Program-made: the position numbers and the translations under genes
Source: a virus
Lineage: Duplodnaviria; Caudoviricetes
Length of the DNA: 64,000 bases
Direction: 5' to 3' (one strand)
IMG/VR virus record: IMGVR_UViG_3300021400_000252
Part shown: one piece after another, positions 54,055-64,000 of the stretch
How the letters are laid out: each line of letters begins with the position of its first letter
Numbering within the stretch: position 1 is the first letter of the stretch
The notes under the pieces: generated by a model
Database searches by the model: none
Told to the model about the DNA's origin: nothing
The model's input: the letters and a program-made list of their open reading frames with translations, nothing else

Positions 54055-54150
54055 AGGGGCTTGGTGTAACGGCAGCACAGCGGTCTTCAAAACCGTAAAA
54101 GGCCGAGTCCAAACCGGCCGGTGCGGGTTCGAATCCTGCAGCCCCTGCCA
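54055..54150 (+). tRNA. tRNA-Trp(TCA), UGA-decoding, long extra arm
   Basis: AGGGGCT/AGCCCCT-G-CCA acceptor, GCGGT-CT TCA AA-ACCGT anticodon arm, GGTTCGAATCC T arm. Confidence 0.92.
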
Positions 54151-55070: not shown

Positions 55071-55704
55071 TTAAATATGCTTAATAATGATTACCTATTA
55101 CCCTAGTGAATGACCGTTTGTTACGGTGCTAGGATAGCGGCTGACAAAGATTCGTAGCTTGCAAAAAATCTTCGTTCATAGACGATAGCCTATGATGGCA
55201 AGTCGATTCGGAAGTATATATTGAAATCAAACCGAACACAATCTTCAAAGAAGAATTACGATAGTCGTTAGTGTATTTGTTATTATTAGAGTTAAGACAT
55301 GATTCTTCTCGGTTCCACAATAGATGATAACCAAAAGTTATATGAATCCTAGTTAGGAATAAGCCTGGAAAACTTACTCAAACCTAGGAAAATCCACAAG
55401 GGACTTGACAGTTGAATACCTAGTAATAGGGATATAAGAGAAGTTTACATGTGAGTAGCCGTATCTGTCGAATACAAAGAAGAACAACCCTTACTTAAAA
55501 GCATGGAACTTTTATAATGATTGTAATTATTTCTGAATACTCGGTGAAAGTTAGAGGTAATGAGTCCTCTCAGTGCTAGACAGCGGTAAGAAGTTTAGAG
55601 GTAGCTCCTTTAAGCTCAGACTTATCGTCACTGTAGTCAAACAACTACCTTAATAATGAAATAAGATGAAAGTCTAATAAGTAGTTATTATTAAGCATAT
55701 TTAA
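55071..55704 (+). ncRNA. Large structured ncRNA, ROOL-like (GOLLD is the alternative)
   Basis: About 630 nt without a credible ORF, closed by a 24-bp terminal stem (55071-55094 with 55681-55704, two G-U), many internal hairpins, upstream TGTATAAT, next to tRNA array. Confidence 0.72.
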
Positions 55705-55931: not shown

Positions 55932-56034
55932 AAGTTAAGTTACTGAAAGATGTAGCTTAACAAAAATTAAGCTACAATGAATAAAAGTATCAGTAACAGT
56001 TCCATAGATTGTTTTACATATATTCCCTTTGTTC

Positions 56035-56066
56035 AACGTAGCTAGATGGTTACGTTTTTTATTTTT
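56035..56066 (+). terminator. Attenuator-like terminator between leader and tRNA array
   Basis: AACGTAGCT-AGAT-GGTTACGTT plus T-run; competing upstream helices. Confidence 0.7.
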
Positions 56067-56137
56067 ATTAATATCTTACCGTTAGCTCCTCGGTTTTGAG
56101 CTTCGATCCGTTGTACGTTAAGCCTCGGTAATCCCAT

Positions 56138-56213
56138 GGGGTTGTAGCTCAGTTGGGAGAGCGCTAGCTTTGCAAGCTAGATGTCGCGAGTTCGAGCCTC
56201 GTCTTCTCCACCA
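56138..56213 (+). tRNA. tRNA-Ala(TGC)
   Basis: Cloverleaf, G3-U70, CCA; two T-T mismatches in acceptor stem. Confidence 0.9.
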
Positions 56214-56289
56214 GGGACCGCATGTTCTGAGATAGCGAGACAGTTTTGCAAACTGACTGTTGTGGGTTTGACTCCCACCGGCTCCACCA
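56214..56289 (+). tRNA. Atypical tRNA-Ala(TGC)
   Basis: G3-U70, loop TT TGC AA, T loop TTTGACT, divergent D arm, CCA. Confidence 0.7.
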
Positions 56290-56307
56290 CTAAAATTTAA
56301 TAACATA

Positions 56308-56367
56308 GAGCCTATACTTATTTCTAAAATCTAATAAAGTTCTTTGGGTGAATATAATAGTTAGGCC
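56308..56367 (+). ncRNA. Bulged-stem repeat RNA, copy 1
   Basis: GAG-CCTA-T-ACT-TATTTC...T-AGT-TAGG-CC. Confidence 0.68.
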
Positions 56368-56375
56368 AAGTTAAT

Positions 56376-56452
56376 GGGGGCTTAGCTCAGCTGGTTAGAG
56401 CAGTGGACTGTTAATCCACGTGTCGCAAGTTCGAATCTTGCAGTCCCCGCCA
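56376..56452 (+). tRNA. tRNA-Asn(GTT)
   Basis: Canonical cloverleaf, CCA. Confidence 0.95.
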
Positions 56453-56468
56453 ATAATTAAATATTAAT

Positions 56469-56561
56469 GTCGAGTTGGCAGAGTCTGGTTTATTGCGACG
56501 GTCTTGAAAACCGTTGACGGTGATGAGCCGTCCGTGGGTTCGAATCCTACACTCGACGCCA
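56469..56561 (+). tRNA. tRNA-Ser(TGA)
   Basis: Cloverleaf with long variable arm, G73, CCA. Confidence 0.93.
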
Positions 56562-56660
56562 TAGGTATGCTAGTGGTACCTATATGCGTGGTTTGTTAAG
56601 GGGTTTGTTAACAAGCATACAAAAATAACTAGTTCATGAAAATCAAATTCCACCGTATTT

Positions 56661-56736
56661 GCTCCGTTACGTCAACTGGGAGACTACAATCCCTACAAGA
56701 TTGTGGCTGTAGGTTCGAGTCCTGCACGGAGCACCA
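56661..56736 (+). tRNA. tRNA-Val(TAC), C33 variant
   Basis: CAATC-CC TAC AA-GATTG, canonical T arm, CCA. Confidence 0.85.
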
Positions 56737-56765
56737 TTAAAAATATTAAAGAAGGAGTTAAAGCG

Positions 56766-56843
56766 ATGTTTATCTTAAGTACACGATTTAGCAGCTTAAA
56801 ATTTAATACTTATATAAATGCCGCTTTAGCTGAAATAGATTAG
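56766..56843 (+). CDS. 25-aa Phe-codon leader peptide overlapping atypical tRNA-Phe
   Basis: AAGGAG RBS; MFILSTRFSSLKFNTYINAALAEID. Confidence 0.58.
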   Translation: MFILSTRFSSLKFNTYINAALAEID

Positions 56844-56894
56844 CACTAGGTTGAAGCCCTAGGGATGTTGGAGCATTACCAACAGGCGGCACCA
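56820..56894 (+). tRNA. Atypical tRNA-Phe(GAA), AGCATTA T loop
   Basis: All four stems pair; loop TT GAA GC; CCA. Confidence 0.75.
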
Positions 56895-56899
56895 TATAT

Positions 56900-56975
56900 G
56901 GACAGTTGGCATATGTGGTCTGTGCGCTAGTCTGAAGAACTAGATATCTTGGTTCGATTCCAAGACTGTCCACCA
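56900..56975 (+). tRNA. tRNA-Phe(GAA)
   Basis: Cloverleaf, loop CT GAA GA, CCA. Confidence 0.92.
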
Positions 56976-56983
56976 ACTTAAAT

Positions 56984-57060
56984 CCGGATTTAGCTCAGCT
57001 TGGTAGAGCACTTGGCCTGGGACCAAGGGGTCAGAGGTTCGAATCCTCTAATCCGGACCA
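56984..57060 (+). tRNA. tRNA-Pro(TGG), C33 variant
   Basis: C1-G72, loop CC TGG GA, CCA. Confidence 0.9.
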
Positions 57061-57078
57061 CTAAAAATTAAATAATTA

Positions 57079-57231
57079 GAGCCAAAGCTTATTTCAAATT
57101 TTCAGGGCACCTGCGTGTCGATGGTTCGAATCCATCCCTCCCGACCAGCTAATATAATTATTATATTAGTAGTTATATCTCGGGACGGTAGCTCAGTAGG
57201 TAGAGCAGCAGGATATAAATTTAGCTTGGCC
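57079..57231 (+). ncRNA. Bulged-stem repeat RNA, copy 2, with circularly permuted tRNA domain (YrlA-like)
   Basis: tRNA 3' half 57110-57147, hairpin linker, tRNA 5' half 57181-57212, enclosed by GAG-CCAA-A-GCT-TATTTC / T-AGC-TTGG-CC. Confidence 0.78.
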
Positions 57232-57239
57232 ATATTAAT

Positions 57240-57316
57240 GGTGTCATAGTTTAGTTGGTTAGAATGCCGGCCTGTCACGTCGGAGATCGCGGGTTCGAGT
57301 CCCGCTGGCACCGCCA
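57240..57316 (+). tRNA. tRNA-Asp(GTC)
   Basis: Canonical cloverleaf, G73, CCA. Confidence 0.95.
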
Positions 57317-57321
57317 TAACT

Positions 57322-57398
57322 CGGGATGTAGGCCAGTTGGTTAAGTCGCTGGTTTTGGGAACCAGAAATCGAGTGTTCGAGTCACTCCATTCCGACCA
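57322..57398 (+). tRNA. tRNA-Pro(TGG)
   Basis: C1-G72, loop TT TGG GA, CCA. Confidence 0.9.
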
Positions 57399-57440
57399 AA
57401 TAAGTTGTGGGTATAATAAGACTTGAAACCCTCGAAAAGT

Positions 57441-57515
57441 GTGCGAGTCGTTTAATGGTTAGGACTTCTGCCTTCCAAGCAGATGATGCCGGTTCGATTC
57501 CGGTCTCGTGCTCCA
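57441..57515 (+). tRNA. tRNA-Gly(TCC)
   Basis: Cloverleaf, U73, CCA. Confidence 0.92.
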
Positions 57516-57546
57516 GTAACAAAAATCTTTAAAGGAGAATAATGTC

Positions 57547-57618
57547 ATGGAATATTATTATTATTATCGATATTGCATTAAAAATTTAATAACTATATTT
57601 CGTGGCGTAGTTCGTTAA
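57547..57618 (+). CDS. 23-aa Tyr-run leader peptide overlapping atypical tRNA-Tyr
   Basis: AAAGGAG RBS 9 nt upstream; MEYYYYYRYCIKNLITIFRGVVR. Confidence 0.65.
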   Translation: MEYYYYYRYCIKNLITIFRGVVR

Positions 57619-57685
57619 AGAGGCGAGGAAGTCCGTAAAACTTTCATCTTAGATCCGCTGGGAGCATTACCCAGAGCCACGACCA
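57601..57685 (+). tRNA. Atypical tRNA-Tyr(GTA), AGCATTA T loop, C33
   Basis: CGTGGC/GCCACG acceptor, GAAGT-CC GTA AA-ACTTT, CTGGG/CCCAG T stem, CCA. Confidence 0.68.
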
Positions 57686-57689
57686 CTAT

Positions 57690-57774
57690 GGCCAGATAGT
57701 CTAGCGGCAATGACTGGAGACTGTAAATCTCCTCCCTTCGGGGTTCGTAGGTTCGAGTCCTACTCTGGCCACCA
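57690..57774 (+). tRNA. tRNA-Tyr(GTA)
   Basis: Canonical bacterial Tyr with variable arm, CCA. Confidence 0.94.
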
Positions 57775-57797
57775 TTTTATTGTATTATATATTATAT

Positions 57798-57872
57798 GTG
57801 GTAGTAGTATAACGGTTATTATACCTGGTTGCCATCCAGGAGATGGCGGTTCGATTCCGCTCTATCACTCCA
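57798..57872 (+). tRNA. tRNA-Gly(GCC)
   Basis: Cloverleaf, U73, CCA. Confidence 0.92.
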
Positions 57873-58067
57873 TAAATAGATATTATAAGGTACCTATAAT
57901 ATTCAGTGAAACTCTGATAGTGGTAAAAATACTTTATACTAATTGCAATGTCGTATAGAGTCACTTTGTCCGTACCGGTGAGGTCACACAATAAACTGTA
58001 TTCATCGGCCCATTTAAAAATAATTATTATATTAATAATATTAAATATAAAAAGGAAGTGTTTTATC

Positions 58068-58493
58068 ATGAGTAGTACAAGTATGTACTGGCGTGTTCAT
58101 AGTGACATGCAAACAGCAAGAAAAGAAAAGAATGAAGTTAATAAGAGCATCTTATCATTGCTTTATAGTGAGTTAAATAAGAAAGCTATTGAGTTAAGAG
58201 TTGAAGAGTTAACAGATGCAGATTCTACTAATGTAATCAAGAAATTTGCTAAGCAATTAGATGAAGAGATTGAGTCTAATGTAAAAGTTGGTAGAACAGA
58301 AAAAGCAAACGAATTAACTTATCAAAAGAATTTAATTCAAACATATTTACCTAAGCAATTAAGTGAAACTGAAATTAAAGATATTTTAGCTACTCTAGAG
58401 GATAAATCAATTCCTTCAGTAATGAAATACTTTAAGACAAATTATAATGGCTTAGTAGATATGAGCTTAGTAAGCAAGTTAGCAAGAATGTAA
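58068..58493 (+). CDS. GatB/YqeY domain protein
   Basis: AAGGAAG RBS before ATG 58068; YLPKQLSETEI, VMKY...GLVDM. Confidence 0.85.
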   Translation: MSSTSMYWRVHSDMQTARKEKNEVNKSILSLLYSELNKKAIELRVEELTDADSTNVIKKFAKQLDEEIESNVKVGRTEKANELTYQKNLIQTYLPKQLSETEIKDILATLEDKSIPSVMKYFKTNYNGLVDMSLVSKLARM

Positions 58494-58564
58494 ATTTAAT
58501 AAGTTCTCCAAGACAAGATAAAGTCTATAAAACCTAACAAATTTTAGAATAAGGAGAACTTACA

Positions 58565-58630
58565 ATGAATTTCTTACGCAGAATTGCAGATTTATTCGTG
58601 ATGGTTTTGATGTCTAGTATTAACGACTAA
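58565..58630 (+). CDS. 21-aa leader peptide upstream of tRNA-Met
   Basis: AAGGAG RBS; MNFLRRIADLFVMVLMSSIND. Confidence 0.55.
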   Translation: MNFLRRIADLFVMVLMSSIND

Positions 58631-58650
58631 TTAAAACCATCTTTTTTCTT
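58600..58650 (+). terminator. Terminator overlapping leader ORF, ending at tRNA-Met 5' end
   Basis: GATGGTTTTGAT / ATTAAAACCATC 12-bp stem plus TTTTTT. Confidence 0.6.
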
Positions 58651-58729
58651 GGCTCGGTAGCACAATTGGCTAATGCACTCGGTTCATACCCGAGAGATTT
58701 TGTGAGTTCGACTCTCACCCGAGCCACCA
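58651..58729 (+). tRNA. tRNA-Met(CAT), elongator type
   Basis: G1-C72, loop TT CAT AC, CCA. Confidence 0.85.
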
Positions 58730-58752
58730 TGATATTGTATATTATACTGTAT

Positions 58753-58826
58753 AGGTGCGTCGTTCAATGGTAGGACTGTGGTCTCCAAAACCGCGTATGA
58801 GGGTTCGAATCCTTCCGTGCCTGCCA
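58753..58826 (+). tRNA. tRNA-Trp(CCA)
   Basis: A1-U72, G73, loop CT CCA AA. Confidence 0.93.
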
Positions 58827-58846
58827 TAAAGAAAGGATATGATATC

Positions 58847-59143
58847 ATGGAAGTATATTTTATATCAATGTTAAAAGGATGGGACAAATATGGTCCTACA
58901 GGTCTTAGAACTGTTGGCTATTTTGAAAGCTTTGATGAAGCAGAAGAAAGAGTTATAGGTAATGTGTGTGATTTATATGAAGATGGTTATTGGCCATATG
59001 CAATAATTGAAAACATTGAACCTGGCTTATATCAAATTTGTGAACATCCAATATTTTATAAGTTTAACAAAGAAAAAGAACAATTTGAAAAGATTGATTT
59101 TCCAGAAGAACTTCAAATGTTTAGAGGTTTTACTATCGGGTAG
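58847..59143 (+). CDS. Hypothetical phage protein (98 aa)
   Basis: Track start overlaps tRNA-Trp; AAGGA RBS supports ATG 58847; RTVGYF...CDLYE...YAIIE. Confidence 0.72.
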   Translation: MEVYFISMLKGWDKYGPTGLRTVGYFESFDEAEERVIGNVCDLYEDGYWPYAIIENIEPGLYQICEHPIFYKFNKEKEQFEKIDFPEELQMFRGFTIG

Positions 59144-59153
59144 GAGGTAAGCT

Positions 59154-59660
59154 ATGAATTACATATTCTTAGATGTAGATGGTGTTCTTAATAATGAGAC
59201 ATATTTTCGTCAACACTTAGATGATGATGGAATTTTAGACGAAGAAAATATTAAATTATTAGCTGATTTAGTAAGTAAAACTAATGCTAATGTAGTATTA
59301 TCTTCTTCTTGGCGTACTCTATTTACAGAAAAAGGAAATCCTAGACGTCCTATCTTTGAAAATGGCACTCGTCGTGGTTTTGAATTAAAGAGACTATTAA
59401 AGAAATATGGAATTAAAATCATTGGTAGAACAGAGGTTGCTAAAAATAAATTTGGAGATTACTATGATGTTGGAGAACGTCCAGATGAGATCTTTAATTA
59501 TATAATGCATAACTTAACTGCTGGTGATAAATTTGTTATATTTGATGATGAAGATTTTAGAGGAGGTATGAAGAGATTTGCTAATAATTTTATCATTACT
59601 GATTGGAAGTATGGCTTACAAGAAAAAGATATCAAAAAAGCATTAAAGATATTATTATAA
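59154..59660 (+). CDS. HAD phosphatase of the Swiss-army-knife RNA-repair type
   Basis: IFLDVDGVLN, VVLSSSWR, FVIFDDE, GL. Confidence 0.85.
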   Translation: MNYIFLDVDGVLNNETYFRQHLDDDGILDEENIKLLADLVSKTNANVVLSSSWRTLFTEKGNPRRPIFENGTRRGFELKRLLKKYGIKIIGRTEVAKNKFGDYYDVGERPDEIFNYIMHNLTAGDKFVIFDDEDFRGGMKRFANNFIITDWKYGLQEKDIKKALKILL

Positions 59661-59684
59661 TGTTGTATAATAATATATGAACTT

Positions 59685-59775
59685 GGCGACTTACTCAAGC
59701 TGGTGAAGAGGACGCACTGCTAACGCGTTAGGCCGAGAGATCGGTGCGAGGGTTCGAACCCCTCAGTCGCCGCCA
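59685..59775 (+). tRNA. tRNA-Ser(GCT)
   Basis: Cloverleaf with long variable arm, G73, CCA. Confidence 0.93.
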
Positions 59776-60125
59776 AACAGTTGGTTGATTTAGTCACTAG
59801 GATACCAACACTCATTGGATGAAGACTAACGTCGCGAATGAGAGGTGAAGGAAGAGAATCTATCTTGGCAATTGCTATAGGATGGATTTTAAAGGATACG
59901 ACCTTCTACAAAGGATACCTAATCGTCCAAAAGTCCTTTTATTTAATTAAATATTAAAAATATATTTAAATTTTTTAAATAATATTGTATAATATATATG
60001 TGGATGCCTGAGTCTCTGAGTCGACGGTTAGATATCAGCCATTTAGCGATGGAAGTGATCTAATTATAGCGAAAGAGATAGCTACTGCAGAGCGAGCGTA
60101 CTACGGTCCCTCAGGCCTAATATAT

Positions 60126-60201
60126 TGCGGGCGAGTGAATGCGGTCTCACGCAGGGCTCATAACCCTGAAATACGCGGTTCGACTCCGCGGCCCGCAACC
60201 A
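60126..60201 (+). tRNA. Initiator-type tRNA-fMet(CAT)
   Basis: GGG/CCC at base of anticodon stem, loop CT CAT AA, T1-A72, CCA. Confidence 0.85.
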
Positions 60202-60238
60202 ATCGGTTGGGAATGGCAAACCCTCAAGCTCAGTTACC

Positions 60239-60576
60239 GATGCCAGAAAGACGATGCGATCGAGTTATTTATTTTCGATCTTAAATAAGATAATAGATCT
60301 GGAAATCTGGTTGGCTAGTTGGCGTGAACCTAGAAATAGGAGCGTTTGCAACAGACCTACAAGATGCGATCGTGAGTAGGCAAGCACAGGCAAGAGACAG
60401 AGAATGGGATGCTTTTAAATGTAAGCTACGGTTGAGTCATTCTGCAGAGGACACAAGGGTCACCAAGGATCAAAGACCAAAACACGGGTTGATAGTTTAA
60501 AATGGTAAAACGCCGGCATGAATGTCGGAAATGTTGTTCGAGACGATAATACCCACCAGGTTACGGTTCTGGCATC
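60239..60576 (+). ncRNA. Unidentified structured RNA with embedded tRNA-like domain
   Basis: GATGCCAGAA/TTCTGGCATC closing stem; GC-rich, no long ORF; tRNA-like 60486-60558. Confidence 0.5.
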
Positions 60577-60659
60577 TACACAAGCCATGGTTAGGAAGAT
60601 GCTAGCTTTAGCTAAAATATTGGCTAAATTATAAGTATTAAAATTTTATATGGAGACTA

Positions 60660-60791
60660 ATGATGGTAGTAACATTAATTTGTACTGCTATTATCTTAAT
60701 TGCATTTGGTTTTGCAGCTCATTATATTGATTCTTCTTATGAAGATTTCAAAGAATATATGGAAACTCAAAATAAATACAATGATAGATAG
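60660..60791 (+). CDS. 43-aa single-pass membrane peptide (not in ORF track)
   Basis: GGAG RBS; MMVVTLICTAIILIAFGFAAHY...; GGCTAAATTA upstream at 60622. Confidence 0.6.
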   Translation: MMVVTLICTAIILIAFGFAAHYIDSSYEDFKEYMETQNKYNDR

Positions 60792-60917
60792 TAACCTATA
60801 AATTTGCTTATAGCTAATTACTGTAAGCTAATTTTTAGAGATATCATGAAAACGTTTTCTTCAAATTCTCCAGAAAAATTTTAAAATTTATTGTATAATA
60901 TAATGATCAAATAATTA

Positions 60918-60999
60918 GAGGCTATACTTATTTCTTAAAAGTAGGTTATCACAGGTTCGAATCCTGTATCCGCCACTCGGCAGATATGTTAGTTAGTCC
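60918..60999 (+). ncRNA. Bulged-stem repeat RNA, copy 3, with T arm plus loop-closed acceptor stem
   Basis: GAG-GCTA-T-ACT-TATTTC...ACAGG TTCGAAT CCTGT ATCCGCC-ACTC-GGCAGAT...T-AGT-TAGT-CC. Confidence 0.75.
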
Positions 61000-61025
61000 T
61001 ATATTATTTGCTAAATTATGATGTA

Positions 61026-61122
61026 GAGGCTGTACTTATTTCTGAAGTTAAACAACTAATACAATATGAGATACTTGGATCATATGATCAAAGTGGTCTC
61101 ATATATCAAATTTAGTCAGTCC
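61026..61122 (+). ncRNA. Bulged-stem repeat RNA, copy 4
   Basis: GAG-GCTG-T-ACT-TATTTC...long hairpin...T-AGT-CAGT-CC; TTGCTAAATTA at 61008. Confidence 0.7.
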
Positions 61123-61145
61123 ATTAATTTAATAAAAAATTATTC

Positions 61146-61204
61146 GAGCCTATACTTATTTCGAAAAATTATAGAAGATCATGGAAAATACAGTTAGTTG
61201 GGCC
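61146..61204 (+). ncRNA. Bulged-stem repeat RNA, copy 5
   Basis: GAG-CCTA-T-ACT-TATTTC...T-AGT-TGGG-CC. Confidence 0.7.
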
Positions 61205-61229
61205 AATATAATTTACAAAAATATTCCTA

Positions 61230-61289
61230 GAGTTTATGCTTATTTCTCAAATAAAAAATAATAGGTTGATAGTAAGTAGTAGCTAAACC
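61230..61289 (+). ncRNA. Bulged-stem repeat RNA, copy 6
   Basis: GAG-TTTA-T-GCT-TATTTC...T-AGC-TAAA-CC. Confidence 0.7.
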
Positions 61290-61387
61290 AGAGAATATAA
61301 ATTTGAAAATTATTTGGCTTCCGGCATGAGTGTTGGAAGCTTTTAATTTTATATAAATAGTTAAAAAAGAAAGGAAGATTTAAAACT

Positions 61388-63418
61388 ATGACAAAACAAG
61401 AAATTTTATTTAAGAGACATTATTTATTAGAGGAAGTAGGCGTAGAACCATCAGTTACTACTGCTTATTTAAATGCGTACTTATTAGCTAACTTTGGTAT
61501 CGAAGTGGATAAGCCAGCTAAGTTAACAAAAGGAATGATTAAGTTAATCTCTGATACTATGCATTTAGATGTTCCACATTCATTCTATGCTAACCCTCAA
61601 CATATGAGATACTTCACTTCTGAAGAGTTATTAATTGAACAATTAGTTTCATATTTAGTTGTTGAATGTACTGGTAATGGTGCTATAGATCCAGAGCACC
61701 CAGAAAAGTACGATAGAATTGAAGTATTTAAGAAAACATTACCTAACTATGTAGTTGGTGATGAAATTAAGTTAAGAAAGTTCAATATCTTAACTAATGA
61801 TGAAGCTGACGTAGAATTAACAAAGATTGCTAAGTCTTATGCTGAATATACTCGTCCACTTTCATTAGATGAGAATGATGAATTTATGTTCTTACTTGAG
61901 AATGGATATTTTAAGGATGAATTTGGTATTGCATGTAAGGAGACTGTCTTTACATTAATTGACAATGTCGACATTTCTTATGCTAGATTCTTAGATAAGA
62001 AGGATATTGTAAAATATTCAGTATTAAAGTTTGGTGAAAATAAGTCTTTCAAGGATTTATCTAAGGAAGATTTAGCAACATTAAACTTCATTAGACAATT
62101 AGCAACTTATGCTCATTATTGCCCACTTTCTAAGAAACAAGCAAAGATGTATAATAAGTTAATCAAAGTAGCTGGAATCGATGAGAAGAAAGTTTCTAAT
62201 GATAAATCTCCAGATAAGTTAGCTATGGCTAAGTTAGATGCTGGTGATATTGTTGGTGCTGCAAAGATTTATGCTAAAAATGGTTCTATGTTAGAAAGAC
62301 ATATTAAGATGTTATTATCAAGAGCTAATCCAAGAGAAGCTATTGAAATCTTAGATTTATTACCAGCTAAGAATCCGATTGCATTATACCAAATGGTTGC
62401 AAATATGCAAGCTGATGGAAACGAAGCAAGAGTATTCTCATTCAAGAAACGTAATCTAACTAAGACTCATGTTGAAACTGAGTATGAAACTAAGTGGAGA
62501 AAGTCTAGATTAACTGAAGGTACTAAGAAATTATTACATGATGAAGCTTTAAATAAGATTGATGATCACTATAGTGAATTACCATCTTTAGGAAAGATCT
62601 ATATCAATCCAAACTTCTACAGAACTATGATTCCAACTAATACTTCAGCATCTGGTCAAGGTTTAGATGTACCTCCAACAGGTTCAAGAATTGCTATCAG
62701 AGGAACTGCTATTAGAACATTCGTTCGTTGGAAAGATATCCACGATGTAGATGCAGACTTCTCTGCTATTAAGGTTGATAAGTTTGGTAATTGTACATTT
62801 GGTAATTATATGTACTTCGGAAATTATCACGAAAAGCCATTTGGTAACGACGCATTATTCTCAGGTGATGATCGTTCAGCTAATGGTTGTGAATATGTTG
62901 ATATTGAATTAGAAGGTATGAAGAAACAAGGATATAGATACATTGTATTTGCATTCCATGGTTTTGCTGGAAAGTTCAACAACTGTGAAGTTGTTTGTGG
63001 ATATCAAGATAAGACTAACTTAGCAACTAAGGCTTGGGATCCAAAGAATATCGAATTCCAATTCAGAGTTCGTGGTGATTCAAGTGTTTGTCAAGCATTT
63101 GCTATTGACTTAGAGACTAAAGAAATTATTGTATTAAATCAAATGGACGACAGCATATCAAGAGTTGTAGATAAAAATACATTCAAGAGTGTTGCAAGAT
63201 ATTTAAACGATTCAGCTTTAGATCTATCTATGGGTAGAATTCTAGAACACCGTGGTGAAGTTGTAGCTACTCCTGAGGAAGCTGACATTGTGTTCGATAA
63301 TGAATATCAACCAACTGAGTCTCAAGTTGCAGTACGTTCTTACAATGTTGAAACATTAGTTTCTCTTGTAAATGATGGTACTATTGAATTACCAAAGAAG
63401 GAAATAGTAGAGGAGTAA
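61388..63418 (+). CDS. 676-aa protein, helical N-terminus plus TerD-like C-terminal domain
   Basis: IRTFVRW...DVDADF...FSGDD...GCEYVDIEL...RYIVF. Confidence 0.6.
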   Translation: MTKQEILFKRHYLLEEVGVEPSVTTAYLNAYLLANFGIEVDKPAKLTKGMIKLISDTMHLDVPHSFYANPQHMRYFTSEELLIEQLVSYLVVECTGNGAIDPEHPEKYDRIEVFKKTLPNYVVGDEIKLRKFNILTNDEADVELTKIAKSYAEYTRPLSLDENDEFMFLLENGYFKDEFGIACKETVFTLIDNVDISYARFLDKKDIVKYSVLKFGENKSFKDLSKEDLATLNFIRQLATYAHYCPLSKKQAKMYNKLIKVAGIDEKKVSNDKSPDKLAMAKLDAGDIVGAAKIYAKNGSMLERHIKMLLSRANPREAIEILDLLPAKNPIALYQMVANMQADGNEARVFSFKKRNLTKTHVETEYETKWRKSRLTEGTKKLLHDEALNKIDDHYSELPSLGKIYINPNFYRTMIPTNTSASGQGLDVPPTGSRIAIRGTAIRTFVRWKDIHDVDADFSAIKVDKFGNCTFGNYMYFGNYHEKPFGNDALFSGDDRSANGCEYVDIELEGMKKQGYRYIVFAFHGFAGKFNNCEVVCGYQDKTNLATKAWDPKNIEFQFRVRGDSSVCQAFAIDLETKEIIVLNQMDDSISRVVDKNTFKSVARYLNDSALDLSMGRILEHRGEVVATPEEADIVFDNEYQPTESQVAVRSYNVETLVSLVNDGTIELPKKEIVEE

Positions 63419-63445
63419 AATCCTTTACTATTTTCTAAAAAAGTA

Positions 63446-63474
63446 TTTACAAACATTAAAAAATGTTGTATAAT
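63446..63474 (+). promoter_or_regulatory. Sigma70/SigA-type promoter
   Basis: TTTACA-17 nt-TATAAT. Confidence 0.75.
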
Positions 63475-63509
63475 ATAAATGAAATATGGAAAGTGAGGTG
63501 AATATAGCT

Positions 63510-64000
63510 ATGTTAAAAATCAAATTATATCCATGTTTCGAGCATTGGTTAGAATTTAATAATATCTGGTTATATTCTGATCCACACTTCAATGATCCAG
63601 AAATGGTTCATCTAAGAAAGAATTATATTTCTGATGAAGAGCAGGTTAAAAGAATTAATGCCAAAGTTGGTAAAAAAGATTTATTAATTTGCTTAGGAGA
63701 TGTAGGAGATATTTCTTTTGTTTCAAAGTTAAGAGCTGGATATAAAGTATTAATTAAGGGTAATCATGACGATAAAGGTGATGCCTACTATCAAAGAGAA
63801 ATTATCGAAAGATTTTCTAATGAAAATATGGATGAATTAGATAAAACAACATTTGCATTAGCAGGAGTTACTGGCGAACAGGATATTATCCATAAAATAG
63901 TTAGAAAATATACTAAGGTTGAAGATAATCACTTATTTGATGAAGTATATTCAGGACCAATTTGGATTGCTGAGAAAATCTTATTGTCTCATGAACCAAT
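63510..64000 (+). CDS. Calcineurin-like metallophosphoesterase (runs off window)
   Basis: SDPHF, LGDVG, KGNHD, SHEP; GAGGTG RBS. Confidence 0.85.
   Translation, partial: MLKIKLYPCFEHWLEFNNIWLYSDPHFNDPEMVHLRKNYISDEEQVKRINAKVGKKDLLICLGDVGDISFVSKLRAGYKVLIKGNHDDKGDAYYQREIIERFSNENMDELDKTTFALAGVTGEQDIIHKIVRKYTKVEDNHLFDEVYSGPIWIAEKILLSHEP

Follow-up and report, generated by a model that had tools for sequence, protein, structure and literature searches.

We describe a family of structured RNA elements and the protein gene that accompanies them in a 64,000-nucleotide (nt) stretch of viral DNA (Duplodnaviria; Caudoviricetes; IMG/VR record IMGVR_UViG_3300021400_000252), hereafter the window. Six elements, E1 to E6, share a bulged terminal helix, which we call the handle, around inserts of different kinds, and four of them stand before a gene for a 676-amino-acid (aa) protein with a helical part and a C-terminal TerD fold. 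With moderate confidence, we propose that the handle RNAs and this protein are an RNA–protein pair, a Ro/Y-like particle whose partner is not a recognizable Ro60. An earlier note, made from the sequence of the window alone, had suggested a Y-RNA/Ro-like ribonucleoprotein with a new partner. This suggestion is supported by covariation in the handle, by co-occurrence of RNA and protein, by a YrlA-like architecture and by the lack of a detectable Ro60, and the binding of the one to the other is predicted.

Six handle RNAs share a covarying bulged helix

All six elements lie on the + strand and fit the consensus GAG-N4-N-RCU-UAUUUC ... AGY-N4'-CC. The pattern GAGNNNNNRCTTATTTC, allowing up to one mismatch, gives six matches in the window, all exact, against 0.79 expected, and six matches are reached in 0/100 shuffles. 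A covariance-model scan of the window finds no copy beyond the six. The elements and the adjacent gene are as follows, with bit scores from the covariance model of the phage handle (R1).

56308-56367, + strand: E1, short A/U-rich insert, inside the tRNA array, 8 nt before tRNA-Asn (pattern, 3' partner and fold; R1 60.7 bits)
57079-57231, + strand: E2, circularly permuted tRNA-like insert (fold; sub-threshold match to Rfam YrlA)
60918-60999, + strand: E3, insert of a T arm and an acceptor-like stem capped by a 4-nt loop, class "T-arm only" (fold; R1 41.5 bits)
61026-61122, + strand: E4, long-hairpin insert (fold of -24.1 kcal/mol, z -2.57; pattern and partner)
61146-61204, + strand: E5, short A/U-rich insert (R1 54.8 bits)
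61230-61289, + strand: E6, short A/U-rich insert, the copy closest to the gene (R1 53.1 bits)
61388-63418, + strand: gene for the 676-aa candidate partner protein

The two strands of the handle change together from copy to copy. The quartets N4/N4' read CCTA/TAGG, CCAA/TTGG, GCTA/TAGT, GCTG/CAGT, CCTA/TGGG and TTTA/TAAA, with a G-U pair in three, while the inner triplets pair as ACT with AGT and GCT with AGC. The third base covaries too, GAG occurring with CC and GAA with TC, and because of this covariation we pair position 1 with the last C and leave A2 bulged. The handle then folds as a G1–last C pair, the bulged A2, five pairs, a bulged U8 (A in E2) and three pairs, for a total of 9 base pairs (bp). 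The invariant UAUUUC continues the 5' strand past this helix and is single-stranded.

Within this frame, the inserts fall into three classes by their folds, with E2 and E3 tRNA-like, E4 a long hairpin, and E1, E5 and E6 short. The E2 insert runs in the order anticodon-stem 3' strand, T arm, capped acceptor stem, D arm and anticodon-stem 5' strand, and its acceptor strand is followed by CCA. When compared to all 17 tRNAs of the window, the E2 module is ruled out as a recent copy of any of them. The fold of the E3 insert has no D arm, and no insert in the window has an anticodon loop. E3 to E6 form a tandem array 99-470 nt upstream of the ATG at 61388, and E1 and E2 lie within the tRNA operon, each stopping 8 nt short of the tRNA that follows. 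The six starts, all of the listed pairings, the three insert classes and the four tandem copies before the 676-aa gene had been put forward in the earlier note, and each is borne out here.

The handle covaries and co-occurs with the protein in related phages

The 676-aa protein has 1025 representative relatives (clusters at 50% identity). Through protein similarity alone, with 12 closer sequences as the query, we retrieved 27 related phage loci, and RCTTATTTC is present in 25/27 of them, on the strand of the gene, directly 5' and often directly 3' of it. Across the window and these loci, all distinct 5' motifs (67/67) have a partner complementary at 9/9 positions within 435 nt, which holds for 1.1% of downstream sequences after shuffling. 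When 35 short members are aligned, double changes are observed in 6/9 pairs (41 cells versus 7.9 in shuffled alignments), far above all slid registers. Because this alignment was selected for pairing, its 100% pairing is true by construction, and it is the double changes together with the shuffle control that constitute the evidence. The handle structure is under selection.

The association also holds when the RNA is taken as the starting point. An exact 17-mer shared by E1 and E5 occurs in 26 IMG/VR contigs, 22/26 of which encode the protein; the remaining four lack the gene and are fragmentary (8-59% complete). In the two loci whose proteins diverge most (39-41% identity), the exact motif is missing, and the covariance model detects five or six handles in each, all with UACUUC in the place of UAUUUC. 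Two of the checks proposed in the earlier note, a covariance model and co-occurrence with homologues of the 61388-63418 gene, speak for the family.

In most related loci, a short-insert copy nearest the gene is found at the same position, and numerous further copies lie downstream of the gene or tens of kilobases (kb) off. Among 66 phage members, 35 have short inserts, 16 are permuted tRNA-like and 6 are T-arm only. At positions 16339-16443 of L004/L018, we also observe a handle RNA with a tRNA-like body in normal order, in which a 4-nt loop replaces the anticodon loop.

A variant of the pair is encoded on Lachnospiraceae chromosomes

A cellular subfamily of the protein, 25-30% identical to that of the window, is found in at least 265 species-representative genomes, mostly of Lachnospiraceae and other Clostridia from rumen and gut. 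In two isolates, its neighbors are housekeeping genes (shikimate kinase, a hydrogenase subunit, amylase and uvrB), which indicates that the gene is chromosomal there and not prophage-borne. The phage handle model R1 has no match in 80 cellular loci, and a variant handle was detected instead via k-mer enrichment: UUACU[UCG]C lies within 400 nt upstream of the gene in 60/74 cellular loci, a 23-fold enrichment. This cellular handle consists of a 4-5-bp outer helix, an internal loop with the motifs AGCUA and RAUAUC, an 8-bp inner helix and then UACUUC, and its 3' strand stops 15-25 nt upstream of the ribosome-binding site. The outer helix, which played no part in the selection of the sequences, shows double changes in all 5 pairs. 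The model built on the cellular handles (R2) in turn recovers none of the elements of the window.

The cellular RNAs carry the same kinds of insert, with 51 short, 29 permuted tRNA-like and 15 T-arm only among 102 members. The proportions are alike in phages and cells: about half of the members are short, about one in four is permuted tRNA-like, and between a tenth and a seventh are T-arm only. A terminal helix, CUUA(U/C)UUC, AG(Y) opening the 3' strand and a variable insert are found together beside a member of the protein family. From the co-occurrence in phages, in the UACUUC clade and in cells, it follows that RNA and protein travel together over deep divergence and that the RNA varies with the lineage of the protein.

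Two observations concern individual cellular loci. At L063 2220-2377 and L067 349-479, the Rfam tRNA model (46 and 36.9 bits) runs across the D half of an element and the T half of the one after it, such that the two handle strands sit intron-like between the tRNA halves; this layout may be a mere by-product of the tandem arrangement. In Lachnospiraceae bacterium AC2031 (L096 1035-2768), the handle RNA and the gene are immediately preceded by genes for a calcineurin-like phosphoesterase and for a HAD hydrolase. This neighborhood, which echoes that of the phage, is not seen in Eubacterium ruminantium and may be a coincidence.

The partner is a helical protein ending in a TerD fold

The AlphaFold2 model of the 676-aa protein, computed with 51 relatives, is confident, with a predicted local distance difference test score (pLDDT) of 92.5 and a predicted template-modeling score (pTM) of 0.92. 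It is helical to about residue 400, followed by a beta hairpin, a TerD-fold beta sandwich (residues 438-602) and a short C-terminal tail; the beta sandwich is that of the TerD fold in the predicted structure. At the sequence level, no Pfam family is matched at E ≤ 1, including the TerD model (PF02342), and the 51 family members have no Pfam family in common. Sequence and profile searches of the PDB return nothing relevant, and the single PHROG match is to a group of unknown function. In BFVD, full-length structural relatives are found in Campylobacter virus IBB35 and Lactobacillus phage LpeD.

One link to a named family is with the MXAN_6230/SCO0854 RING proteins. The NCBIfam model NF041916 matches residues 282-581 with an E value of 2e-17 (up to 1e-26 for relatives), at 62.7 bits versus a cut-off of 600, and the same family is matched over the full length by predicted structure in the ESM Atlas, with a template-modeling (TM) score of 0.74. 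The last helices, the beta hairpin and the TerD domain are alike in sequence, and the predicted structures are alike over the whole length. The RING proteins, however, are about 840-1000 aa long, are actinobacterial or myxobacterial, and have a prokaryotic RING finger that is absent from the window protein, and the match does not cover the RING region. The protein of the window is thus a related module and not a member of RING_SCO0854. On the basis of the NCBIfam and ESM Atlas matches, the helical and TerD module also occurs in actinobacteria and myxobacteria, where a prokaryotic RING finger is fused to it.

Classical members of the TerD family (PF02342; 2QZ7, 3IBZ and 2KXT) are, by comparison, stand-alone proteins of about 190 aa encoded in tellurite and stress operons, whereas the TerD domain of the window protein is the C-terminal part of a 650-700-aa protein and falls short of the Pfam model. 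By analogy with what has been proposed for TerD domains generally, it may add regulation via a metal or a small ligand.

Relation to YrlA and Ro60

In Rfam 15, no family reaches its threshold for the six elements, and a permissive search returns only YrlA and tRNA/tmRNA-type models. The YrlA model (RF02553) matches E2 at 57112-57210 with 26.6 bits, where 69 is the gathering score, and only over model positions 23-85; it has no match at E ≤ 10 in E1 or in E3 to E6. With the long cellular members, the alignment extends over the whole model (positions 1-114) and scores 42-48 bits, which is also sub-threshold. These members and YrlA share the order of their parts: an outer helix, an internal loop, a 7-8-bp inner helix, a YUAC tract, a T arm, a capped acceptor stem and a D arm. 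Of the elements in the window, E2 has the YrlA-type tRNA-like domain with T arm, capped acceptor stem and D arm within a terminal stem, E3 has part of it (T arm and acceptor stem), and E1, E4, E5 and E6 have none.

The resemblance to YrlA Y RNAs therefore lies in the design. Both are modular, with ends that form a protein-binding stem (predicted for the handle) and a middle that forms a permuted tRNA-like body, and both are encoded beside a presumed protein partner in bacteria and phages, often near tRNA and RNA-repair genes. They differ in that the handle RNAs score below threshold, in that most of them have no tRNA-like part, and in that a locus may contain up to about ten copies. Ro60 binding has been linked to the motif GNCGAAN0-1G near the Y RNA 5' end (Chen et al. 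2014, PMC4201824), and this motif is absent from all six 5' strands; in its place are the invariant UAUUUC or UACUUC and, in cells, AGCUA/RAUAUC. Finally, the protein beside the handle RNAs has a TerD fold at its C terminus, and neither a TROVE nor a vWA domain is detectable in it. In our reading, the handle RNA has a YrlA-like scaffold, probably related to that of YrlA itself, and presents another surface for recognition by a protein.

On the side of the protein, the general plan is similar to that of Ro60, as both are large proteins with an alpha-helical repeat part followed by a compact domain of a metal-binding type, adjoin RNAs with a bulged end helix and have a sporadic taxonomic distribution. 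Yet no significant match in sequence, profile or fold connects the two, and the C-terminal domain is TerD instead of vWA. The TROVE model (PF05731) does not match the 676-aa protein at E ≤ 1 or any of the 51 family members at E ≤ 0.1, and the 676-aa protein has no C-terminal vWA domain with the metal ion-dependent adhesion site (MIDAS) motif. No TROVE domain is found in the window, in any of five related phage genomes of 95-100% completeness (positive controls in Deinococcus and Bacteroides were matched), or in the genomes of four Lachnospiraceae isolates with the cellular version. In a class-level sample, the family occurs in 1/200 genomes and TROVE in 2/201, which is too sparse to speak of mutual exclusion. 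The remarks of the earlier note that the stem is unlike the Ro site and that no Ro60 is recognizable in the window agree with these searches, and the comparison with the YrlA and Y RNA models that it proposed leads to no described Rfam family.

An alternative is that the pair is an ordinary, very divergent Ro60/Y-RNA system, in which the helical part is a remote TROVE domain, vWA has been replaced by TerD, and the RNAs are divergent YrlA. The alignment of cellular members with the full YrlA model is in its favor, as are weak reciprocal matches of hidden Markov models in one region: the TROVE model matches family member P0129 at 14.1 bits (E 1.2e-4 among 151 sequences), and the family model matches TROVE proteins weakly (E 0.004 among 120 sequences). 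In this same region, an hhalign alignment places the invariant family motifs L-x-R-N-L, R-x-F-x-F and G-K-x-Y-I opposite LRNLRN, LPFRYY and GKTLI, which are hallmarks of TROVE, in the same order. Against this stands the hhalign probability of 0.9% between a profile of 25 clostridial Ro60 proteins and the family profile. Folded alone, the N-terminal domain gives a poorer model (pLDDT 74.7) with generic helical-repeat matches only, and the fold searches list no Ro60 chain, which does not show that the folds differ. Because TROVE is absent and the hhalign probability is so low, we retain a divergent Ro60 as a rival despite the weak collinear motifs, and we regard it as unlikely.

Genomic setting and expression of the array

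The window derives from a giant myovirus of rumen or gut. The same DNA is found in sheep and other gut metagenomes, and the window encodes baseplate and tube proteins, 17 tRNA genes, a ROOL RNA and promoters of the TGTATAAT type. Among INPHARED phages, a megablast search with 56000-64000 returns tRNA-sized matches only, and a tblastn search with the 676-aa protein returns a single weak match; neither finds a close cultured relative. Around the handle RNAs, we note the following genes and signals.

57948-58493, + strand: YqeY-like gene, among the RNA genes
59154-59660, + strand: neighboring gene with the HAD domain of "Swiss Army Knife" RNA-repair proteins (Pfam PF18143, E 8e-25)
60892-60899, + strand: extended -10 element TGTATAAT, 19 nt before E3 (from reading the sequence)
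61316-61351, + strand: intrinsic-terminator-like hairpin of 11 bp with a T run, between E6 and the ribosome-binding site
63486-63998, + strand: downstream gene for a calcineurin-like phosphoesterase, truncated by the end of the window (Pfam PF00149, E 5e-7)

The TGTATAAT element before E3 is likely, judging from its sequence, to be the promoter of the E3 to E6 array, and boxes of this kind also stand ahead of further RNA genes of the window (at 59988-59995 and 63467-63474, among others). The terminator-like hairpin is followed within 40 nt by the ribosome-binding site of the gene and its ATG. A similar hairpin lies between the last handle and the gene in ten related loci and is missing from other loci. 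In L007, L010, L012 and L014-L016, terminator-like hairpins occur about 20-90 nt past the gene-proximal handle, and several of them have UUUUGG in or near the loop. Given this layout of promoter, handles and terminator, the gene is probably expressed via read-through from the RNA promoter, and the gene-proximal handle may double as a feedback operator for the mRNA of the protein. For E1 and E2, cleavage of the adjacent tRNAs by RNase P would free their 3' sides. Metatranscriptome contigs from four studies cover the array and the gene, as contigs that carry no information on ends, strand or level and in which a gap in coverage has no significance. Two contigs from RNA libraries are restricted to the array (60833-61291, with zero mismatches, and 60914-61401); they are compatible with transcription and prove neither transcription nor discrete ends.

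The layout raises the question of whether the handles act only in cis, as a leader or operator that controls the adjacent gene by attenuation or translational feedback. The short-insert copy that stands right upstream of the gene in most related loci would be expected of such a leader, as would the short distance of the cellular 3' strand from the ribosome-binding site and the terminator hairpin that, in the window and in 9 related loci, stands between the last handle and the gene and leaves no space for a promoter. However, E1 and E2 are 4-5 kb distant in the tRNA array, and many copies in other loci lie 3' of the gene or tens of kb from it. The copies are also arranged in tandem and have conserved insert classes, tRNA-like bodies included, and a leader has no need of a permuted tRNA. 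We consider a purely cis-acting role quite unlikely.

In another scenario, the handles would be processing signals, either of permuted or split pre-tRNAs or of operon spacers that are cut and joined, and the inserts would mature into working tRNAs. This would fit with the position of E1 and E2 between tRNA genes, each 8 nt from the next, with the CCA after the acceptor strand in E2, with the RNA-repair-type enzymes encoded close by, and with one cellular locus where the tRNA model joins the D half of one element to the T half of the next. About half of the members, though, have no tRNA part at all, no insert of the window has an anticodon loop, the acceptor stems end in loops, and the handle stem is not a bulge-helix-bulge motif. 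Processing would further leave unexplained the link to one protein family, which has no known nuclease or ligase fold, and we find this scenario very improbable. The multiple dispersed copies per genome could also suggest repeats that do not act as RNA, for example recombination sites or what is left of a mobile element. This possibility is extremely unlikely, as the helix is kept by compensatory changes despite sequence drift, every copy is on the strand of the gene, and the family is conserved across phages and bacterial chromosomes with housekeeping neighbors.

Other features of the window bear on RNA without involving the handles. A full-length ROOL RNA at 55078-55695 (+ strand; Rfam RF03087, 246.9 bits) starts the tRNA region. 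At 54055-54150 (+ strand), there is a 96-nt tRNA with the anticodon UCA, called "SeC" by ARAGORN, which is probably a UGA-reading suppressor tRNA. Right behind tRNA-Ala, a tRNA-shaped element at 56214-56289 (+ strand) has no ARAGORN call and a sub-threshold match in the tmRNA clan (22.7 bits). Finally, at 59776-60640 (+ strand), about 850 nt around tRNA-Met (60126-60201) are richer in G+C and have few open reading frames, with a TGTATAAT box before each block, a weak tRNA-like match at 60486-60555 (20.9 bits) and a terminator-like hairpin at 60513-60528; these blocks are probably additional structured RNAs.

A model for the particle and its role

Our preferred reading is a Ro/Y-like particle made of handle RNAs and the 676-aa protein. 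The six elements would encode small non-coding RNAs that belong to a single modular family and are transcribed as discrete molecules. The helical and TerD-fold protein would bind the handle, recognizing the two-bulge helix together with the single-stranded UAUUUC, and the particle would follow the plan of Ro60 and Y RNA, in which the protein grips the stem and leaves the insert on display for other factors. These factors would probably be enzymes that recognize the shape of tRNA.

As to what the particle does, Ro60 and Y RNA have a known tie to RNA repair operons (PMC4201824; PMC7790460). In the window, the tRNA arrays, the HAD domain, the phosphoesterase and YqeY fit with this tie and point to surveillance, repair or decoying of tRNA. 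Because the tRNA array and RNA-repair-type phosphoesterases occur together in a giant myovirus, a role in the conflict between phage and host over tRNA appears likeliest, whether through RNA surveillance and repair or as a decoy for tRNA-cutting enzymes. Our confidence in any specific downstream function is low. A broader proposal, which we make tentatively, is that an ancient YrlA-like scaffold has swapped Ro60 for an unrelated helical and TerD protein. The pair would then serve as a modular display platform, made of a single protein-bound handle and exchangeable tRNA parts, for tRNA-damage sensing, decoy or repair in clostridia and their giant phages in the course of infection, and the TerD domain could couple this platform to a metal or nucleotide signal.

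Significance

The handle RNA family is outside Rfam 15 and the protein is outside Pfam. In the literature on TerD with tRNA-like RNAs, on YrlA since 2019 and on Prok-RING/SCO0854, we found no description of the RNA–protein pair, and a 2026 preprint on tRNA-mimic families (skipping-rope, DUF2693-FD and salivarius-1) makes no mention of TerD, Ro60 or phages and cites YrlA only in passing. To our knowledge, Ro60 with its Y RNAs is the only particle of such a design, and Y-like tRNA mimics have been assumed to accompany Ro60. Here, the same RNA design is found with a different protein, in a large family (1025 clusters) that spans phages and Lachnospiraceae chromosomes.

If binding is confirmed, the pair would represent a second solution, independent or radically diverged, to the task of Ro60 and Y RNA. 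It would also give the TerD fold, whose function is still obscure, a new role in RNA binding, and would assign a function to part of the non-coding DNA around the tRNA arrays of giant phages. Eubacterium ruminantium FB3002 and the Lachnospiraceae bacteria AC2031, AC2029 and C6A11 would then be culturable hosts in which to study Y-like RNA biology. By analogy, the link to RING_SCO0854 suggests that, in that case, the related actinobacterial and myxobacterial modules may be RNA-guided too.

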